Shown piece after piece: positions 4,494 to 40,262 of a DNA stretch of 64,000 nt; positions within the stretch are counted from its first letter, which is position 1, and each line of letters opens with the position of its first letter. The notes under the pieces are model-generated. The model had not been told where the DNA came from, did no database searches, and worked only from the letters and a program-made list of their open reading frames with translations. The translations under genes and the position numbers were made by a program. The stretch lies in NCBI RefSeq assembly GCF_056746865.1, contig NZ_CM163382.1, one strand, 5' to 3'.

Positions 4494-6065
4494 ATGACAT
4501 CTCCATCTTCGACAGCCGGAAAGCCCTGTGTGGAATGCGGCATTCCTGATCCATGTATTTTTGATGTTATTAGTGATTTTCCAGAGGCCGGCGAGAAACA
4601 TTTCTGGTCAAAAGAAGGAGTGGCGCGTTTTAAGCTACTGGATGATGGTTCCGGATGTGATGGTATAATTACCATTACCTACCAGTGCGATAAAAGTGGA
4701 ACACATGAGGCATGGTTAGAGGAAGAATCAGAAAATAATCATAAGATACTGCAACCTTTCGGAATACCTAATAAGGTCACTTTGGATGATAACTTGTCTG
4801 AAGGTGAAATAATTGCTATGGGTACATTTCGAGTACCATGGGATTATTTGGGGGCAATATCCTCTCCACTTAAGAATCATTATGAACCTGCCCATTATTC
4901 AGTCAGAATTGACAGTTGTTACGAATGTGGCAATTATGTTGAAATTGATGTTTATCCTACAGTGGAAATTAGGTTTACTACAGGGTTCAGCTATGAGATT
5001 TCGTCATCAAAACAGACGAGAACAGTAAAAGAGCGGCGTGACGAAAGAATAAAAGCCAGGGACGCAATGGAGAACACCAAGCCCAGGGATAAAAATAAAC
5101 TCCGTAGCGGCTGGACAAATACCACTGCTGAGTTTGAGTGGATAAACAAGACTTCCCTGACTGTCGATTTTGGCGTAAAAATAGCTAATGTTGAACACAC
5201 AAGTGAATATGAAAAAGAGATAAAAAAACTTCGACAAACAAAGCAACTGGAACAGATAGGAAGAATTGACTCTCTGGTCAAGAATGTCAATAAATATTTT
5301 GCGCCAGATCCTGACAATAATAATGGTACGCGCAAATATGCATTGTTCAGTGCAAAAATAGAACCCGTTAAACTGGGTATATCGTATGCCTATCAATATA
5401 CCGATATCCAGGATGGCCCCTGTCATTTTTATGGTTTGTTTGGTGCCCCATTTTTTGAAGCGTCGTTCAGATTCGATATTATTTCATTTATATGTGCATA
5501 TTGTAAAGTCGAGTCATTGGTCAACAGATGTCGTGAATATCTCCGTAAAAACGGAGCCAGTGTTGAATGCTATATCGAGATTTCAGCGGAGATTAATCTT
5601 GATCTTGGCGCAGTATACGCTGAAAAGGATAAAAAATGGGAGTTTAATGTAAAGGAAAGTAACATCAAGCTCGGTTTAAAAGGTGTGGTGAGTGCGACGT
5701 TTGAGGCGAATGTTTTTGTTGTACAACTGACCGCCGAAGCGACTGCCTCTATAGAAGCGAAAGCTGGATTTGGATTTGATTCACATGATGACGGACTGGA
5801 CCTAGCATTATTTCATGACGGCATTAAAGGGAAGTTTGAATTTAAGATTGATGTGTCTCATGGTGAAGTTGATGAAAAAGGAAAGGGGAAGGAAAAGAGC
5901 GAAAAACCTGAGAAGAAAGATACCGTTGAGTGGCAGTTATGTGATCCTATGGAGGTAAAGGATTCACCATTACGGGTTAATTTATACGGTAAAGAACGCA
6001 CTGTGGAGAAAAAAGTAACACCGCCGAAGCCAGTGACAACGTGGACGATAGGTATGGATTATTAA
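4494..6065 (+). CDS. Candidate T6SS cargo effector, activity unknown
   Basis: 523-aa AT-rich ORF immediately after the DUF4123 adaptor. I recognise no catalytic motif; Lys/Glu-rich C-terminus. Confidence 0.45.
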   Translation: MTSPSSTAGKPCVECGIPDPCIFDVISDFPEAGEKHFWSKEGVARFKLLDDGSGCDGIITITYQCDKSGTHEAWLEEESENNHKILQPFGIPNKVTLDDNLSEGEIIAMGTFRVPWDYLGAISSPLKNHYEPAHYSVRIDSCYECGNYVEIDVYPTVEIRFTTGFSYEISSSKQTRTVKERRDERIKARDAMENTKPRDKNKLRSGWTNTTAEFEWINKTSLTVDFGVKIANVEHTSEYEKEIKKLRQTKQLEQIGRIDSLVKNVNKYFAPDPDNNNGTRKYALFSAKIEPVKLGISYAYQYTDIQDGPCHFYGLFGAPFFEASFRFDIISFICAYCKVESLVNRCREYLRKNGASVECYIEISAEINLDLGAVYAEKDKKWEFNVKESNIKLGLKGVVSATFEANVFVVQLTAEATASIEAKAGFGFDSHDDGLDLALFHDGIKGKFEFKIDVSHGEVDEKGKGKEKSEKPEKKDTVEWQLCDPMEVKDSPLRVNLYGKERTVEKKVTPPKPVTTWTIGMDY

Positions 6066-7216: not shown

Positions 7217-8379
7217 AATTTTTTGTCGCTGATATTCCAGACAGGAAAACAATATGCCTTTAGCTGCCAGATTAAACGACAAAGGTACCGGCACAGGGAA
7301 AGATCACGTAACGCTGCTTTTTTGTACTAAATAATTCGCATTTTATGTTTAAAATTTGAGATATTCCTCATTACCTGAGGCTGTTTTTTATTACTTATAC
7401 ATGATCAAATACTCCTTACATAATTAAGGGGAACAAAATGGAACTTAAAAATTGATGGAACATATTTCTGTTATTCCCGATTACAGACAAGCCTGGAAAG
7501 TGGAACATAAATTGTCGGATATTCTACTGTTGACTATTTGTGCCGTTATTTCGGGTGCAGAAGGTTGGGAAGATATAGAGGATTTTGGGGAAACACATCT
7601 CGATTTTTTAAAACAATACGGTGATTTTGAAAATGGTATTCCTGTTCACGATACCATCGCCAGAGTTGTATCCTGTATCAGTCCTGCAAAATTTCACGAG
7701 TGCTTTATTAACTGGATGCGAGATTGCCATACTTCAGATGATAAAGACGTCATCGCAATTGATGGAAAAACGCTCCGGCACTCTTATGACAAGAGTCGCC
7801 GCAGGGGAGCGATTCATGTCATTAGTGCGTTCTCAACAATGCACAGCCTGGTCATCGGACAGATCAAGACGGATGAGAAAACCAATGAGATTACAGCTAT
7901 CCCAGAACTTCTTAACATGCTGGATATTAAAGGAAAAATCATCACAACTGATGCGATGGGTTGCCAGAAAGATATTGCAGAGAAGATACAAAAACAGGGC
8001 GGTGATTATTTATTCGCTGTAAAAGGAAATCAGGGGCGGCTTAATAAAGCCTTTGAGGAAAAATTCCCACTGAAAGAATTAAATAATCCAGAGCATGACA
8101 GTTACGCAATGAGTGAAAAGAGTCACGGCAGAGAAGAAATCCGTCTTCATATTGTTTGCGATGTCCCTGATGAACTTATTGATTTCACGTTTGAATGGAA
8201 AGGACTGAAGAAATTATGCGTGGCAGTCTCCTTTCGGTCCATAATAGCAGAACAAAAGAAAGAGCCAGAAATGACGGTCAGATATTATATCAGTTCTGCT
8301 GATTTAACCGCAGAGAAGTTCGCCACAGCAATCCGAAACCACTGGCACGTGGAGAATAAGCTGCACTGGCGTCTGGACG

Positions 8380-34365: not shown

Positions 34366-35695
34366 TTTTTCCGCTTTCGATAACGCCCTGCGCTCGCTGG
34401 AGTCGATCCCGCTGGCCCGCGTCGCCGGGCGGCTGGTGCGTCTGAACGGCATTCTGCTGGAGAGCGTCGGCTGCCCGCTAATGACCGGGCAACTGTGCCG
34501 CATCGAAAGCGCCAATCACACGCTGATCGACGCGCAGGCAGTGGGCTTTAATCGCGACATCACCTACTTAATGCCGTTTAAACAGCCGGTCGGCCTGATG
34601 GCAGGCGCACGCGTCTTCCCGGAAGAAAAAGCCCACGACATCCTGATTGGCGAAAGCTGGTTAGGCCGCGTGGTTAACGGTCTCGGCGAACCGCTGGATG
34701 GCAAAGGCCGCCTGAACGGTAACGACCTTCTGCCGCCGCTGCCACCCTCAGTCAATCCCTTAACCCGCCGTTCAGTGGACGAACCGCTAGACGTGGGCGT
34801 GAAAGCGATTAACGGCCTGCTGACCATCGGCAAAGGCCAGCGTGTCGGGCTGATGGCGGGCAGCGGCGTCGGGAAAAGCGTGCTGCTGGGGATGATCACC
34901 CGCCAGACCAAAGCCGACATTGTGGTGGTCGGGTTGATTGGCGAACGCGGGCGCGAAGTAAAAGAGTTTATCGACCACTCGCTGGGCGCGGACGGGCTGG
35001 CAAAGTCTATCGTCGTCGTCGCACCCGCCGATGAATCGCCGCTAATGCGACTGAAAGCCACCGAACTGTGCCACTCCATCGCCGCCTGGTTTCGCGACCG
35101 CGGGCATCACGTCTTACTGCTGGTGGATTCCCTGACCCGCTACGCGATGGCTCAGCGGGAAATTGCTCTCTCGCTCGGCGAACCACCCGCCACCAAAGGC
35201 TATCCGCCATCGGCATTCGGCATGATCCCCAAACTGGTCGAGAGCGCAGGCAACAGCGAAAGCGCGGGATCGATGACCGCTATCTACACCGTGCTGGCGG
35301 AAGGCGACGACCAGCAAGATCCGATTGTCGACTGCGCCCGTGCGGTGCTGGACGGGCATATCGTATTAACCCGCAAGCTGGCGGAAGCGGGGCATTATCC
35401 GGCCATTGATATCGGCCAGTCGATCAGCCGCTGCATGAACCAGGTGACCAGCCTGGATCATCAGCAATCTGCCCGCGCGTTAAAGCAAAACTACGCCGCC
35501 TATATGGAGATCAAACCGCTGATCCCACTCGGCGGCTACGTGGCAGGTGCCGACGCCAGCGTCGACAAAGCGGTGAAAATGTTCCCGGCTATCGAGCGAT
35601 TTTTGCGCCAGGATATGCGCGAACCCGCCGCCCTGGAACTGGTGCAAAGCCGCCTGCAAATCCTCTTTCCTGGTGTCAAAAAGGCAGAACAGTAA
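34358..35695 (+). CDS. lfiI: Flagellum-specific ATPase FliI homolog
   Basis: 445-aa ORF with Walker A GSGVGKS. Confidence 0.9.
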   Translation: MSDFSAFDNALRSLESIPLARVAGRLVRLNGILLESVGCPLMTGQLCRIESANHTLIDAQAVGFNRDITYLMPFKQPVGLMAGARVFPEEKAHDILIGESWLGRVVNGLGEPLDGKGRLNGNDLLPPLPPSVNPLTRRSVDEPLDVGVKAINGLLTIGKGQRVGLMAGSGVGKSVLLGMITRQTKADIVVVGLIGERGREVKEFIDHSLGADGLAKSIVVVAPADESPLMRLKATELCHSIAAWFRDRGHHVLLLVDSLTRYAMAQREIALSLGEPPATKGYPPSAFGMIPKLVESAGNSESAGSMTAIYTVLAEGDDQQDPIVDCARAVLDGHIVLTRKLAEAGHYPAIDIGQSISRCMNQVTSLDHQQSARALKQNYAAYMEIKPLIPLGGYVAGADASVDKAVKMFPAIERFLRQDMREPAALELVQSRLQILFPGVKKAEQ

Positions 35696-35697
35696 CT

Positions 35698-36132
35698 ATG
35701 CGACAAATCATCGACACCCTGGCGCAGTTGCAGCGCCTGCGGGATAAATCGGTCAAAGACAAAACCGTCGAGCTGGCAAAGCAAAAACAGATTTGTGCGG
35801 GCTATGACAACAATATCAAAGCATTAGGCTACCTGGTGGAGAAAACGTCTGCAGGCGCGGCGGCCTCGGTGGAATCGCTGAAAAACGTTAGCGGCTACAA
35901 AGGCACCCTGCGCAAGGTGATCGCCTGGCAGGAGCAGGAAAAAACGCTGGCCGACATCAAAGCCACGCGAATGCAGAAAAACCTGACGGCGGCGGCGTGC
36001 GAAGAGAAAGTGGTGGCCCTGACGCTGGACGACAAACGCCGCGAGCAGCAGGAAAGCGCCACCGCGAAAGCGCAGAAAGCGGTGGATGACATCGCCGTTC
36101 AGTGCTGGCTGCGGCATAAGTTAGCGGAGTAA
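35698..36132 (+). CDS. lfiJ: Flagellar export protein FliJ homolog
   Basis: 144-aa coiled-coil ORF directly after fliI. Confidence 0.75.
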   Translation: MRQIIDTLAQLQRLRDKSVKDKTVELAKQKQICAGYDNNIKALGYLVEKTSAGAAASVESLKNVSGYKGTLRKVIAWQEQEKTLADIKATRMQKNLTAAACEEKVVALTLDDKRREQQESATAKAQKAVDDIAVQCWLRHKLAE

Positions 36133-36134
36133 CC

Positions 36135-36539
36135 ATGAAAACGGTCATCACCTTCGGCACCTTTGATGTGTTTCACGTCGGTCATCTGCGCCTTTTACAA
36201 CGCGCCCGCAAGCTGGGCGAGCGGCTGCTGGTCGGCGTATCGTCCGACGCCCTGAACATCGCCAAAAAGGGCAGGGCACCGGTTTACCATCAGGATGACC
36301 GCATGGCGATTATCGCCGGTCTGGCGTGCGTGGATGGCGTTTTTCTGGAGGAATCGCTGGAGCAGAAAGCGGAGTATTTGCGGGGGTACGGTGCGGATAT
36401 TTTGGTGATGGGCGATGACTGGGCGGGGAAGTTTGACGATTTCTCGTGTGTCTGTGAGGTGGTCTATTTTCCCCGTACGCCATCGGTATCGACGACGGGG
36501 ATCATTGAGGTGATTAGGGGTAAATCAGCCACCTACTGA
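36135..36539 (+). CDS. Glycerol-3-phosphate cytidylyltransferase-like protein (TagD family)
   Basis: 134-aa ORF MKTVITFGTFDVFHVGHLRLLQRARKLG…VMGDDWAGKFD…EVVYFPRTPSVSTTGI; TagD hallmarks (HxGH, MGDDW.GKFD, RT.G.STT). Starts 3 bp after fliJ. Confidence 0.8.
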   Translation: MKTVITFGTFDVFHVGHLRLLQRARKLGERLLVGVSSDALNIAKKGRAPVYHQDDRMAIIAGLACVDGVFLEESLEQKAEYLRGYGADILVMGDDWAGKFDDFSCVCEVVYFPRTPSVSTTGIIEVIRGKSATY

Positions 36540-36594
36540 TTTAATTCCCGCGGTGAGAGAAGATGATGCCGTCTGCCGTTTGGCTATGTTAAAT

Positions 36595-36698
36595 ATGTTT
36601 AAAAAATCGCGTTTTTTCGACATATCCCCAAAACATGTCGATGGCATAAACGTATTCCAACGACATGTTTAAAAATCGCATTTTATCGACATATCCCT
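36595..36698. repeat. Two copies of a ~35-bp direct repeat between convergent genes
   Basis: atgtttaaaaaatcgcgttttttcgacatatcccc (36595..36629) and atgtttaaaaatcgcattttatcgacatatccc (36665..36698). Confidence 0.6.
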
Positions 36699-39154
36699 GA
36701 CGATTCCTTGCCCGCCAGCGCCTCCACAATCACCATCGCCGCCCGTTCTCCCGCCTTGCCATCCATAAACGCATCGCAATAGTGATGACGAATCTCCTTA
36801 AGCCGCGCCAGCAACGCACCCCAGTCAAACGCCTCTGACAACAAATAACGCAGTTCCGCAACATCATGAGCCACCGGCAATATTTCGCGGATTTGCTGGT
36901 CGGCGCTTTCGGGCGTGGAGTAACTTTTCTCACCGTCGAGCAACGCTGCCATTTCCGGAAAGTCGAGCAGGATTACCCGCTTATCAACGTGGATAGCATC
37001 GAAAATAAAGCCGCTGTTATCGGTCAGCACGTAATCGGCCTTTGCCAGTAGCGCCAGCGTGTGGTGGACGGAGTCGGTGCGCTGTTTTAAGTGCCTGCGC
37101 GCCAGGGCCAGCGATGCAGCTTCTTCCGGGCGCGAGCAGGTGCCGTGGTGCAGTTTGCAAATCAGATTCACATTGCCACTTAAGCGCCCCAATTTTTCTG
37201 CCCAGTGGGGCAGGGAGCTTAATGCGCCAAACGTGGGGGCGTAGAGCACCGTAGGTTTACGGGAATCGGGTTGAATATTTTCTGGCAGAATGCGGTCAAA
37301 CGTGCCGTTATGCCAGGCGTCGAAGCGCGGGTTGCCGACTGCTTTTGCATTGCCGAAATGCGCCAGCGCCCGCTGGCTGTAGTGGCTGTAACACAAAATG
37401 CGTTGATAAAAACGGTTCCAGTCGGCGTGGTTCCACGTCTCTTTGGCTAAGCCATACATGGCGCGAACGTTCACCGCTGCCAGGCCATTGAGCGCGGGCG
37501 TGTGGTAGGGGCTGACCAGGCATTTCACCCGCTGACCGTGTGCCTGCATTTCAGATAAGCGCATTCCTTTGAGCTGCGGATCGTCGATGCTTTTTAGCGT
37601 CTCCAGCATTTCATCCAGAAACGGTTTAAACACGCGGTCGTTGATCACCAGCGTGCAGCCTTGCCCCTGCGCCTGTAGGGCGGTGATGATTGGGCGGTAG
37701 AGCGCGTAATGGAAAGAAGTTTCCATAAAAAAGCCGATGGTGTCGGCGATGGGTAACGCGGATGGCTTTGTGATAGCAGGTAACTTATTGAAATAGTGAG
37801 CAATATTATCAGTCATTTTTTTCTCGATATCGCTAAAGCCTGGTCGCTGATAACTAAGGCTCGGGTAACAGGCCAGCCATTTGTCGGCGCGTAGCAGCGG
37901 CTGCCAGCCGTCTTCCAGCGAATGCTCATCGTTGCTCATCTGCTGCGCCAGTTGCGGGTAGTAGCGGCGGTTCACCAGATAAGCGCATACCTTGCGGCAG
38001 TCCCGCGCGTGCACCAGCCCCGGCAAACTTTTTAGCATCGTTCCCTGCGAAATTTCGCCGCCGAGGATCATCACCTGCCAGGGAATTTTCGCCAGGCTCG
38101 CCAGCAGCGTGTTCAGCACCTGAATATGTTTCTCCTGCTTGAGAATAACCGCGTCATCTTCCAGCAGCAGATAGTTTTGCCAGCCGTGCTGTTGCGCCAG
38201 GCGCAGCGCCTGCAAGTGCGACTGACGTCGTCCCCGTTGGCCGTTTTGATCTTCACTGGCGGCAAGGCGGGTGATCTTCTCAGGTGGAATATGCAGCAAT
38301 GCCAGTTCTTCACGGATCTGTTGTAAGCGATCCGGGCGTTTATCCAGATTCACAACAACTACCTGATCGATCGTCTGATGGTTGATCCCTTGGTGATGAG
38401 TGGCGTTATGTAGACTCAGATAAGCATTGCGCAGCAGCGGATCGCTGACGATATCTGTAAGCGCCGCGTTTACAGGCGTGCTGGCCCCGAGAATAAAGTC
38501 TTTATCAAAGGTGTTGTGGCTGTGCGAGATACACAGAATCGTGCGCTCGCCGGGCAGTTGTAGCGGGTTAACGCTGAAATTGTCGGTGAAACTTTTCTCT
38601 TCGCCTAAATTGCAATCATCGTCGTAACGGTGCTTTTTCAGGTAGTTACGGTGATAGCAAAAGGTGCCGTTGAGGATGTTATGTGGGCCAAAGCTGCGGC
38701 TTTGAAAGATGCGATTGATGTGGCTGTACCAGATGGGGATCTGGTCGGAGCCGGAGATGAGCGCCCGGTGTTTTTGCATCTTGGCGATGGTCCAGGAGAT
38801 TTTATCTGCCGGGTAGTAGTCGTCATCGTCCATGCAGAGGATGTATTCGCCGCGCGCCAGTTCGTTGAGCATATTGCGTTTTTTGCCCAGCGGCAGTTTT
38901 TCCGGGTGATGAATATAGCGGATGTTAAAGGCTTCCGGCGTGCCATTGGTCAGGCGGTCGATGATGTGTTGATGGCTTTGCGGGGAATCGTCGAGGATGA
39001 TGAGTTCGCGGCGGTCTGCCGGGTAGTCCTGATAGCGGTACATATAAAGCAGGTACGGCAGGAATGCGCTGCGGTTCCAGGTTGGCGTGACGACGCTGAT
39101 GAACGGTTTTTCGCGCTGGGTGGCGAGTGTTTTGATAATGGTTGGTGTTGGCAT
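36683..39154 (-). CDS. Multidomain transferase: GT2 + GT25-like + TagF-like CDP-glycerol glycerophosphotransferase
   Basis: ORF 36683..39226; start taken at MPTPTIIKTL (39154) because the upstream extension translates a GC-rich repeat. N-term GT2 (VVTPTWNR…ILDDSP…MDDDDYY), middle GT25-like (VVVNLDKRPDRL), C-term TagF-like (VLYAPTFG…KLHHG…LTDNSGFIFDA). Confidence 0.75.
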   Translation of the reverse strand: MPTPTIIKTLATQREKPFISVVTPTWNRSAFLPYLLYMYRYQDYPADRRELIILDDSPQSHQHIIDRLTNGTPEAFNIRYIHHPEKLPLGKKRNMLNELARGEYILCMDDDDYYPADKISWTIAKMQKHRALISGSDQIPIWYSHINRIFQSRSFGPHNILNGTFCYHRNYLKKHRYDDDCNLGEEKSFTDNFSVNPLQLPGERTILCISHSHNTFDKDFILGASTPVNAALTDIVSDPLLRNAYLSLHNATHHQGINHQTIDQVVVVNLDKRPDRLQQIREELALLHIPPEKITRLAASEDQNGQRGRRQSHLQALRLAQQHGWQNYLLLEDDAVILKQEKHIQVLNTLLASLAKIPWQVMILGGEISQGTMLKSLPGLVHARDCRKVCAYLVNRRYYPQLAQQMSNDEHSLEDGWQPLLRADKWLACYPSLSYQRPGFSDIEKKMTDNIAHYFNKLPAITKPSALPIADTIGFFMETSFHYALYRPIITALQAQGQGCTLVINDRVFKPFLDEMLETLKSIDDPQLKGMRLSEMQAHGQRVKCLVSPYHTPALNGLAAVNVRAMYGLAKETWNHADWNRFYQRILCYSHYSQRALAHFGNAKAVGNPRFDAWHNGTFDRILPENIQPDSRKPTVLYAPTFGALSSLPHWAEKLGRLSGNVNLICKLHHGTCSRPEEAASLALARRHLKQRTDSVHHTLALLAKADYVLTDNSGFIFDAIHVDKRVILLDFPEMAALLDGEKSYSTPESADQQIREILPVAHDVAELRYLLSEAFDWGALLARLKEIRHHYCDAFMDGKAGERAAMVIVEALAGKESSGICR

Positions 39155-39197
39155 GGTGTTTGGGTGAGTTAATGGGTGAATGTGATGAATGTGCGTG

Positions 39198-39315
39198 CTG
39201 ATGCCCTCACCCCGACCCTCTCCCACAGGGAGAGGGAGAAAACCAGCGCTGATTTTAACACCGTGCTCGATCGGTTCCCTCGCCCCTTTGGGGAGAGGGG
39301 TAGGGGGAGGGGAAA
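39198..39315. repeat. GC-rich palindromic intergenic repeat (boxC-like; name uncertain)
   Basis: ctgatgccctcaccccgaccctctcccacagggagaggg … cccctttggggagaggggtagggggagggg; related copy at 46549..46668. Confidence 0.6.
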
Positions 39316-39332
39316 AGCGCGCACAGAGCGAC

Positions 39333-40262
39333 TCACGTCAGCAGCGAAAACGCTGAAAGCAGCGGCTCTGCCGCACATAACGACTGAATTTGCTGGCGAA
39401 TCGACGCAGCATTTTCACTCTCTCGCCAGCGTTCAAACACCGCAAAAAGGGCGAAAATATCCTCCTGTCGCAGCGGTGAACCATCCAGCGTCCATAAACT
39501 GATTAACGTGCGGATAAGATAAAAATCGCACACCAGCGGGCAATAATCTGCTCCGTCTGCCTGCCCAATCACCTCATGGTAAACGCGGTAAATCAGCCAG
39601 TTACGCATCATCCAGGGCGCGGTAGCAAAATGCTGTTGCCAGGTGGTTTGCCACTGTGCCTGAAGCTGATGTTGTAACAGGGCTTCGCTGTTGGCGTCAT
39701 GTAGCGCCAGCAAAGGCATCTGCAACGGCAGCGAAGTTTTGCGCGGGCTTTCCGGCAAAATCGACCAGTCAAACGCACAACTGCCGAGCAGCGTCATCAA
39801 CTGGCGCGCCAGTTGTGGCACGGGCGGCAACTGGGCGAACTGTGCCTGTAGCGTGCCTTTTTTCGCATGATCGGCCAGCGCCTGCGGCAGCGTCGTCAAA
39901 CGGGCAAGAATATCTCCGTCTCTGCCCGGCATTTTACTGGCGCGGGAGAGTAAAATCCCGATGGCATACAGGGAAAGCTCTGGGGTTAAATCGGGGAGCG
40001 TGAGGGTACTCAAAATCACCTGGTTTACTATCGCATCGCGCGCGGAAAGCTCTGCGGCATTTTCTTCCACAGGACGGTAGGTGAGCTGTAAATCAAAGGC
40101 CCTGGCATCGTTGAGTACCGCTTCGCAGCTGGCTGGCTCTGTCAGCATCAGGCTCTGGCGAATCTCGTTTTTCCACACCTTGCGGATGTACAAAGGCGAA
40201 TCGGGATATTGCGTCATAAAATTGCGCACGTATTCCGGTTCGTAACATTCAATAAAACTCAT
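39333..40262 (-). CDS. Hypothetical protein in the lfgA–lfgM–lfgN transcription unit
   Basis: ORF 39333..40301; probable start MSFIECYEPEYV at 40262 preceded by GGAAG. No recognisable motif. Confidence 0.45.
   Translation of the reverse strand: MSFIECYEPEYVRNFMTQYPDSPLYIRKVWKNEIRQSLMLTEPASCEAVLNDARAFDLQLTYRPVEENAAELSARDAIVNQVILSTLTLPDLTPELSLYAIGILLSRASKMPGRDGDILARLTTLPQALADHAKKGTLQAQFAQLPPVPQLARQLMTLLGSCAFDWSILPESPRKTSLPLQMPLLALHDANSEALLQHQLQAQWQTTWQQHFATAPWMMRNWLIYRVYHEVIGQADGADYCPLVCDFYLIRTLISLWTLDGSPLRQEDIFALFAVFERWRESENAASIRQQIQSLCAAEPLLSAFSLLT

Follow-up and report, generated by a model that had tools for sequence, protein, structure and literature searches.

A repeat pair in the Escherichia coli Flag-2 locus as a probable relic of the operator array of a deleted SoFic-type fic gene

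We analyzed a pair of near-identical repeats lying between two convergent genes in a 64,000-nucleotide stretch of DNA (contig NZ_CM163382.1, assembly GCF_056746865.1), which is called the window below. Our comparison with related loci indicated that the repeats are very probably the surviving distal part of the tandem operator array of a SoFic-type fic gene, and that this part is now most likely an inert orphan relic. In intact loci the order is glycosyltransferase gene, array, fic, and tagD-like gene. There, a SoFic dimer would bind the palindromes of the array through its two C-terminal winged-helix domains, and this binding would repress its own transcription and keep the toxic AMPylase at a low level. 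In the window, sequence comparison shows that two deletions took nearly all of fic, together with the proximal unit and the promoter-bearing spacer.

The window holds the E. coli Flag-2 (secondary flagellar) locus with its variable region VR1, and the test segment was 100% identical to the Flag-2 locus of strain 118UI. VR1, which lies between lfiJ and lfgN, is a published hotspot for cargo genes (PMC6993521). The features discussed here are the following.

36135 to 36539, plus strand: tagD-like cytidylyltransferase gene (ORF; RefSeq annotation of the identical 118UI locus)
36533 to 36551, minus strand: remnant of the fic 3' end, 19 bp, the last five codons and the stop (RELNQ*), with a 7-nt overlap with the end of the tagD-like gene
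36554 to 36590, minus strand: internal fic fragment, 37 bp, encoding NIAKRQTASSSL, SoFic residues 316-327
36592 to 36628, minus strand: palindrome A of the middle unit (repeat 1 of the original prediction); fic-sense strand ATATGTCGAAAAAACGCGATTTTTTAAACATAT
36629 to 36664, minus strand: spacer of the distal unit with palindrome B, ACGTTTAT-gcc-ATCGACAT (from inverted repeat I3 and the unit-model match)
36662 to 36697, minus strand: palindrome A of the distal unit (repeat 2 of the original prediction); fic-sense strand ATATGTCGATAAAATGCGATTTTTAAACATGT (from direct repeat D1)
36683 to 39226, minus strand: VR1 glycosyltransferase gene (ORF and RefSeq annotation; RefSeq start 39154)

A repeat search of the 64-kb window returned the pair D1 at 36599-36628 and 36668-36697 (30 nt, 90% identity, spacing 69). 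Manual inspection widened the copies to 36595-36628 and 36665-36697 (33-34 nt), with a single indel in the A-run. The 33-mer consensus had no further match within the window, where shuffles expect 0, and TCGACATATCCC occurred there exactly twice. The near-identical pair described in the original prediction is therefore real and unique in the 64-kb window. Each copy is itself an imperfect palindrome: inverted repeat I7 (36593-36606 and 36612-36625, 86%) has the form ATATGTTTAAAAAA-TCGCG-TTTTTTCGACATAT, and this is true of both copies. A second palindrome, I3, lies between them (36631-36648 and 36653-36670, 89%) and has the ATGTCGA motif of the repeats. The acatgtcga motifs previously noted between the repeats belong to I3, and the overlap with the 3' end of the transferase gene was also confirmed, as the ORF stop at 36683-36685 falls within the second copy.

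Related sequence was sought in E. coli genomes by sensitive blastn with 36527-36715 as the query. The best non-identical match was found in strain 4FM, at the same Flag-2 site and directly upstream of an intact fic gene of 358 aa. This gene (CDS L005 1357-2433, minus strand, where L005 is the 4FM locus) sits between the tagD-like gene and the glycosyltransferase gene. Three tandem units of about 70 bp occupy L005 2430-2605, and the fic start codon lies within the first copy. The window aligned with 4FM in four colinear blocks, separated by gaps of 76, 1,012, and 222 bp.

Window 36453-36551, L005 1277-1375, 96%: 3' end of the tagD-like gene and final 19 nt of fic (BLAST)
Window 36554-36590, L005 1452-1488, 97%: internal fic fragment (blastn)
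Window 36592-36706, L005 2501-2616, 87%: array (BLAST)
Window 36715-36797, L005 2839-2921, 93%: 3' end of the glycosyltransferase gene (BLAST)

By tblastn, NIAKRQTASSSL was identical to SoFic residues 316-327 at 11 of 12 positions; judged from an alignment of the C-terminal domain, these residues probably form the recognition helix of the winged-helix domain. The two remaining pieces of fic are not adjacent, yet they keep their order and orientation, and only deletions in an ancestor that carried fic can account for this. The deletions removed about 1,011 bp and about 76-81 bp, or ~1.1 kb in all, core promoter included. Of fic, pieces of 19 bp and 37 bp survived; of the array, one full distal unit survived, as did the middle unit's palindrome A. 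We rejected the reading of all three 4FM gaps as deletions in the window: the 222-bp gap is extra REP sequence in 4FM and represents a gain in that strain, because Pseudocitrobacter has the same direct junction of glycosyltransferase gene and array as the window. In Pseudocitrobacter faecalis (L011), the order is glycosyltransferase gene, array, fic, and tagD-like gene, without REPs. Window 37261-36592 is colinear with L011 2263-2933 at 88%, and because this colinearity runs across the glycosyltransferase-array junction, the junction must be ancestral. Measured against L011, the deletions in the window come to about 1,011 bp and about 81 bp. A 40-aa ORF at 36525-36647 on the minus strand, which runs through the relic in the fic frame, was not accepted as a gene because a 7-bp deletion disrupts it in two other scar alleles. 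This deletion (window 36568-36574) affects the fic fragment; it varies among the scar alleles and is present in two scar strains.

We also examined how common each allele is. Intact fic at the Flag-2 site was found in 9 of 5,426 complete E. coli genomes, plus Pseudocitrobacter. The window allele is present in 107 of the 5,426. In 96 genomes of the 5,426, including E. coli 042, the fic probe matched only via the 37-bp fragment or more. The original prediction had suggested a check of conservation in other Flag-2 loci, and this went against the element: it is absent from most orthologous sites, where Flag-2-bearing genomes match the 3' end of the glycosyltransferase gene only. In the one such locus examined, that of strain H3 (L002 about 4895-4990), a REP/BIME pair, GCCGGATGCGGCGTAAACGCC...GTAGGCCTGATAAGCG, replaces the relic. 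REPs are also found in 4FM (L005 2720-2830), which has them together with the SoFic cassette, and in strain D8 (L003 about 7900-7990). The REP consensus palindromes (GCCGGATGCGGCG... and ...GCCTGATAAGCG) are present in these three alleles and absent from the window.

The loss of fic is associated with changed ends of both neighbouring genes. The last codons of the tagD-like gene extend into the former SoFic cassette, so that its product has 134 aa here and 131 aa in the REP allele; tagD-like alleles differ from ~36522 onward. On the other side, the stop and the last four codons of the glycosyltransferase gene (GICR) fall in the distal operator unit. In P. faecalis, this gene ends in a TAA at L011 2824-2826, 9 nt before the array. 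The aligned codon in the window is TCA, and thus translation adds five codons (Ser, then GICR) up to a TAA in the distal unit.

Several further observations concern variation at this site. Strain D8 has four hypothetical genes of 179, 212, 166, and 126 aa on the minus strand (L003 5143-7497) at the site of window 36540-36714. None of the four matched a PADLOC defence model, and the insert is a further cargo variant of the Flag-2 VR1 hotspot. Escherichia sp. E1V33 carries a 300-bp duplicate of tagD-like sequence (L009 2509-2803, 89% to window 36520-36221) between the glycosyltransferase gene and the SoFic array, which shows more rearrangement at the site. The 3' end of the tagD-like gene (36430-36530) is the most divergent 100-nt stretch among the scar alleles. 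Three of four scar comparisons gave 12-17 differences per 100 nt here and the fourth gave 2, where 5-9 is typical. Just upstream of the glycosyltransferase start, at about 39169-39500, overlapping ORF translations such as PLPLPLSPKGRGNR and LSHREREKTSADF suggest that a palindromic repeat element rich in GC may lie there.

The fic product encoded in 4FM has the domains Fic_N, Fic, and SoFic-like_C (winged-helix). Its score with the SoFic equivalog model NCBIfam NF046030 was 589.6 bits, above the cutoff of 550, and with the SoFic model of PADLOC it was 402.9 bits. The product also matched the solved structures of EcSofic and of Shewanella oneidensis SoFic, with about 500 bits for the Shewanella homologue. 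SoFic has been reported as a single-gene anti-phage defence toxin, and E. coli SoFic was too toxic for cloning behind a single lac operator, so that three operators were required (PMC12249575). The same study described a protein antitoxin of EcSofic, AS1, encoded by a 47-aa gene downstream of EcSofic in E. coli H397 (PMC12249575). At the Flag-2 site, the 3' ends of fic and the convergent tagD-like gene have 7 nt in common (L005 1357-1363, window 36533-36539), and therefore there is no space directly downstream of fic for an AS1 gene.

To describe the array in intact loci, one genome per species was surveyed, which gave 79 SoFic loci. All of the Enterobacterales loci examined (38/38) carry the 70-bp unit of the window directly upstream of fic, in Escherichia, Citrobacter, Pantoea, Serratia, Morganella, Proteus, Salmonella, Photorhabdus, and other genera. 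A unit profile built from the 4FM units detected 119 units in 39 loci. The copy number varied from 1 to 9.4 across loci and genera, and the start-to-start spacing of units was exactly 70 bp in 72 of 80 cases. In a Citrobacter sp. (L012 2271-3000), TRF found the 70-bp unit repeated 9.4 times, together with a super-period of 140 bp at 96% identity; in E. coli 90-9281 (L007), 260 nt of upstream sequence are nearly identical to this Citrobacter array.

Among 112 distinct units, information content was high only in four blocks, TATGTCGATAAAA, TTTTTTAAACAT, ACATGTTTA, and ATCGACA. All four are versions of one ATGT(C/T)(G/T)A half-site with alternating orientation, and they form palindrome A, TATGTCGATAAAA-N5-TTTTTTAAACAT, and palindrome B, ACATGTTTA-N3/4-ATCGACAT. 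In palindrome A, the centres of the two half-sites are separated by 22 bp; the middle of this palindrome and the linkers are freely variable. Such conservation, restricted to half-sites, is the pattern that would be expected of sites read by a symmetric protein. The gene-proximal palindrome A always contains the fic ATG. The proximal spacer has a sigma-70-like promoter, GTGACA-N17-TATTAT; that is, GTGACA and TAT(T/G)AT stand 17 bp apart. These hexamers were present in 30 and 32 of 37 proximal spacers, respectively, as against 3 and 0 of 43 distal ones. Because they are nearly exclusive to the proximal spacer, the core promoter is likely to bracket palindrome B, with palindrome A in the short leader.

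With this unit as a reference, each of the two direct repeats in the window can be read as a palindrome A, and the motifs that separate these repeats as palindrome B. For the middle unit, nhmmer matched unit-model positions 1-33 to 36624-36592 (E 2.9e-7, 26.6 bits), and its palindrome A is colinear with L005 2501-2535 of 4FM. The 3' half of this unit, where the core promoter sits in intact loci, is deleted. For the distal unit, positions 1-65 matched 36693-36630 (E 3.5e-15, 51.9 bits), and the window copy has the four ATGT(C/T)(G/T)A half-sites of the 70-bp unit, arranged as palindromes A and B. By the comparison of proximal and distal spacers, the spacer at 36629-36664 is of the distal type, without the GTGACA and TATTAT hexamers. 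The period is 69 bp instead of 70 because of a 1-nt deletion in the A-run. TRF reported no array on the window because only ~1.5 periods are left, and the unit-model search found no array units in the 64-kb window beyond the relic. A lone unit without fic was seen in E. coli GPEC709 (L008 2501-2620), between two Xre-type HTH genes; it adjoins AbiEi/AbiEii and a MobH relaxase, and four TTTTTTGGCA repeats come after it. This unit may be a SoFic scar or a site re-used by another regulator.

Three kinds of evidence suggest that the array is an operator that a SoFic dimer would bind through its C-terminal winged-helix domains. A 2026 preprint has reported that S. oneidensis SoFic binds its own upstream DNA as a dimer and not as a monomer (bioRxiv 10.64898/2026.07.09.737422). 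Binding was strongest in the 100 bp nearest the start codon, and a composition-matched random fragment was unbound; the binding was resolved to this 100-bp fragment, and no palindrome was named (bioRxiv 10.64898/2026.07.09.737422). In the DNA listed in Table S2 of that work, we found TATGTCGATAAAA-N5-TTTTTTTAAAC next to the start codon and, further upstream, ACATGTCGAT-tga-ATCGACAT. The enterobacterial unit model matched the S. oneidensis promoter DNA with E 8e-10 and 4e-5, and it had no match in the random control of the preprint. The distal fragment F3, which was unbound in the preprint, has no half-sites. The promoter fragment F1 of S. oneidensis SoFic (mloA) thus resembles the array in having A- and B-type motifs directly upstream of the start codon. 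However, its half-site 1 repeat distance is about 79 bp rather than 70 bp, it has fewer units, and the window copy has lost its gene.

CccR of Yersinia pseudotuberculosis, a Fic protein with a C-terminal HTH, is a proven autorepressor; its target is an inverted repeat at the -35/-10 of its own promoter, and it requires dimerisation (PMC9755527). It is like SoFic in being a dimeric Fic enzyme, and its logic of self-repression is the one that palindrome B and the hexamers would suggest for SoFic. However, its operator is a single site, AGATAATCAT-N26-ATGATAATCT, and not a 70-bp tandem, and the two proteins are distant (29% identity over 45% coverage; PMC9755527). Distant SoFic homologues (35-58% identity) also have repeated palindromes upstream, with different half-sites: Dialister, for instance, has AATACCTTTAT/ATAAAGGTATT, a Bacteroidales genome has TTGACAG/CTGTCAA, and a planctomycete has GACCATTTT/AAAATGGTC. 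The presumed recognition-helix residues 319-322 (KRQT in E. coli) change along with the half-sites. This looks like an operator co-evolving with its repressor, as a correlation along a tree rather than an independent test.

We then considered the present state of the window copy. As fic is deleted, the array overlaps no start codon of an adjoining fic gene. It also lacks GTGACA-N17-TATTAT, since the proximal spacer lay within the 1,011-1,012-bp deletion; the sole promoter-like match on the minus strand agrees at 9 of 12 positions and stands at the deletion junction. A DNA search of the one fully identical genome examined, that of 118UI, gave one matching place and no second array; the absence of SoFic from scar-bearing genomes was judged by DNA similarity of array and fic. 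In sequence terms, the element would be a relic of the array class and not a working member of it. Having no gene, no core promoter, and no second copy detected in 118UI, the array is most likely functionless, except for two incidental roles: the glycosyltransferase gene takes its stop and its last four codons from it, and it spaces the convergent genes.

The original prediction of a protein-binding element rather than a simple terminator is supported as to the origin of the repeats, a palindromic operator array of a SoFic-type fic gene. It fails as a description of a present resident of the Flag-2 locus, because the gene served has been deleted. No Rho-independent terminator was found on either strand of 36300-36900. 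In a search of 35500-37800 against Rfam 15, the only match was to ylbH; it lay elsewhere in the stretch and was at chance level, with 15.4 bits where the gathering score is 50. The outcome of the originally proposed refuting condition is divided. The motif is not conserved in most orthologous loci, but it was found in other genomes, adjoining SoFic genes in the inspected cases except for one lone unit.

It is unlikely that the orphan array is still a working cis-element, such as a bidirectional hairpin terminator or RNA-stability element, or a site that binds or decoys a protein acting in trans. The region folded better than shuffles on both strands (z -4.45 for plus, -2.57 for minus), as is to be expected of palindromes; however, the predicted hairpins are A/T-rich and no terminator-like site was found. 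Four other scar-bearing strains (L004, L088, L089, L090) have the same deletion junctions, and their arrays differ from the window at 1-6 of 115 sites (1-5%), against 9-17% at third codon positions of the flanking genes. The relic is 3- to 10-fold less diverged than the flank third codon positions across the four scar alleles, and its variable columns lie mostly at low-information positions. The half-sites have decayed very little, as the relic units score 47.8-56.5 bits, within the range of intact loci (median 59). Taken over 36540-36706, dead fic pieces included, the whole relic is about three-fold less diverged than flank third codon positions, and this could reflect continuing constraint. 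However, the dead fic fragments have only 2-3 substitutions in about 50 nt, a conservation like that of the array. Because they are equally conserved, the low divergence is a property of the whole scar and not of the operator sites, and purifying selection specific to the array was not supported. A younger scar allele spread via short recombination tracts is probably a better explanation than constraint. The element is also missing from most E. coli Flag-2 loci, and no second array was detected in 118UI. More speculatively, and with a low probability, the orphan array might be kept in about 100 E. coli genomes for a function without the gene. It could be a decoy or landing site for SoFic encoded on mobile elements, or a homology arm by which the SoFic cassette would be regained and lost at the Flag-2 hotspot. 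More generally, the rigidly periodic 70-bp arrays, with up to nine units, might build a higher-order complex of SoFic and DNA, and instead of being simple repressor sites they would then store the toxin until phage infection triggers its release.

ToxI-type arrays have repeats of about 36 nt that are transcribed and processed, with a terminator before the toxin gene. The SoFic array is similar to them in being a set of tandem direct repeats directly upstream of an abortive-infection toxin gene. Its copy number of 1 to 9.4 and the hairpins possible in each unit would also suit a repeat RNA that neutralises the Fic toxin as in a type III toxin-antitoxin system, of which the window would retain 1.5 repeats. 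We consider this very improbable. The array overlaps the start codon, its last spacer holds the likely promoter, and no terminator follows it. A single 7-mer, present as DNA half-sites in both orientations, accounts for all of the conservation, as is characteristic of binding by a dimeric protein, and the Rfam search was blank. Moreover, SoFic has been reported to bind double-stranded promoter DNA with the array motifs (bioRxiv 10.64898/2026.07.09.737422), and the antitoxin of EcSofic is a protein, AS1 (PMC12249575). An independently inserted mobile or dispersed repeat, MITE or REP/BIME-like, is also very improbable in our view. The element is palindromic and AT-rich, and distant blastn gave matches to related sequence in 394 E. 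coli genomes, at several places in them. However, three of the four other copies inspected are directly upstream of a SoFic-type fic gene (the fourth is a lone unit in an ICE-like region), and where a genome has several such places, they probably represent different registers of a single long array. A dispersed repeat family, proposed from 8 places per genome, was dropped when the inspected matches turned out to be long tandem arrays beside fic. The window copy has none of the marks of a MITE (terminal inverted repeats, target-site duplication, gene-independent dispersal); in place of duplications, it has fic fragments on one side and the 3' end of the glycosyltransferase gene on the other, and the fic fragments are in correct order and orientation. 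REP/BIME sequences share palindromy with the relic and, in the REP allele examined, its intergenic position, but they are GC-rich (GCCGGATGCGGCG...) and unrelated to fic, and their consensus occurs in the alternative allele and not in that of the window.

The reading as a relic of a SoFic operator array makes the window a case of ordinary gene decay. On the sequence comparisons, the window copy would add a decayed case to an already known kind of element, the operator through which a Fic toxin with a DNA-binding domain regulates its own gene. The odd repeat pair of the Flag-2 locus, which is also present in the reference strain E. coli 042, is explained as the scar of a lost defence gene, and this scar has reshaped the 3' ends of both neighbouring genes. 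The comparison also yields a candidate SoFic operator at base level, where earlier work had located binding to a 100-bp fragment. Across Enterobacterales, this candidate operator takes the form of a rigidly 70-bp periodic array of variable copy number, with lineage-specific half-sites that track the recognition helix. Finally, the cargo list of the Flag-2 VR1 hotspot gains a defence gene.
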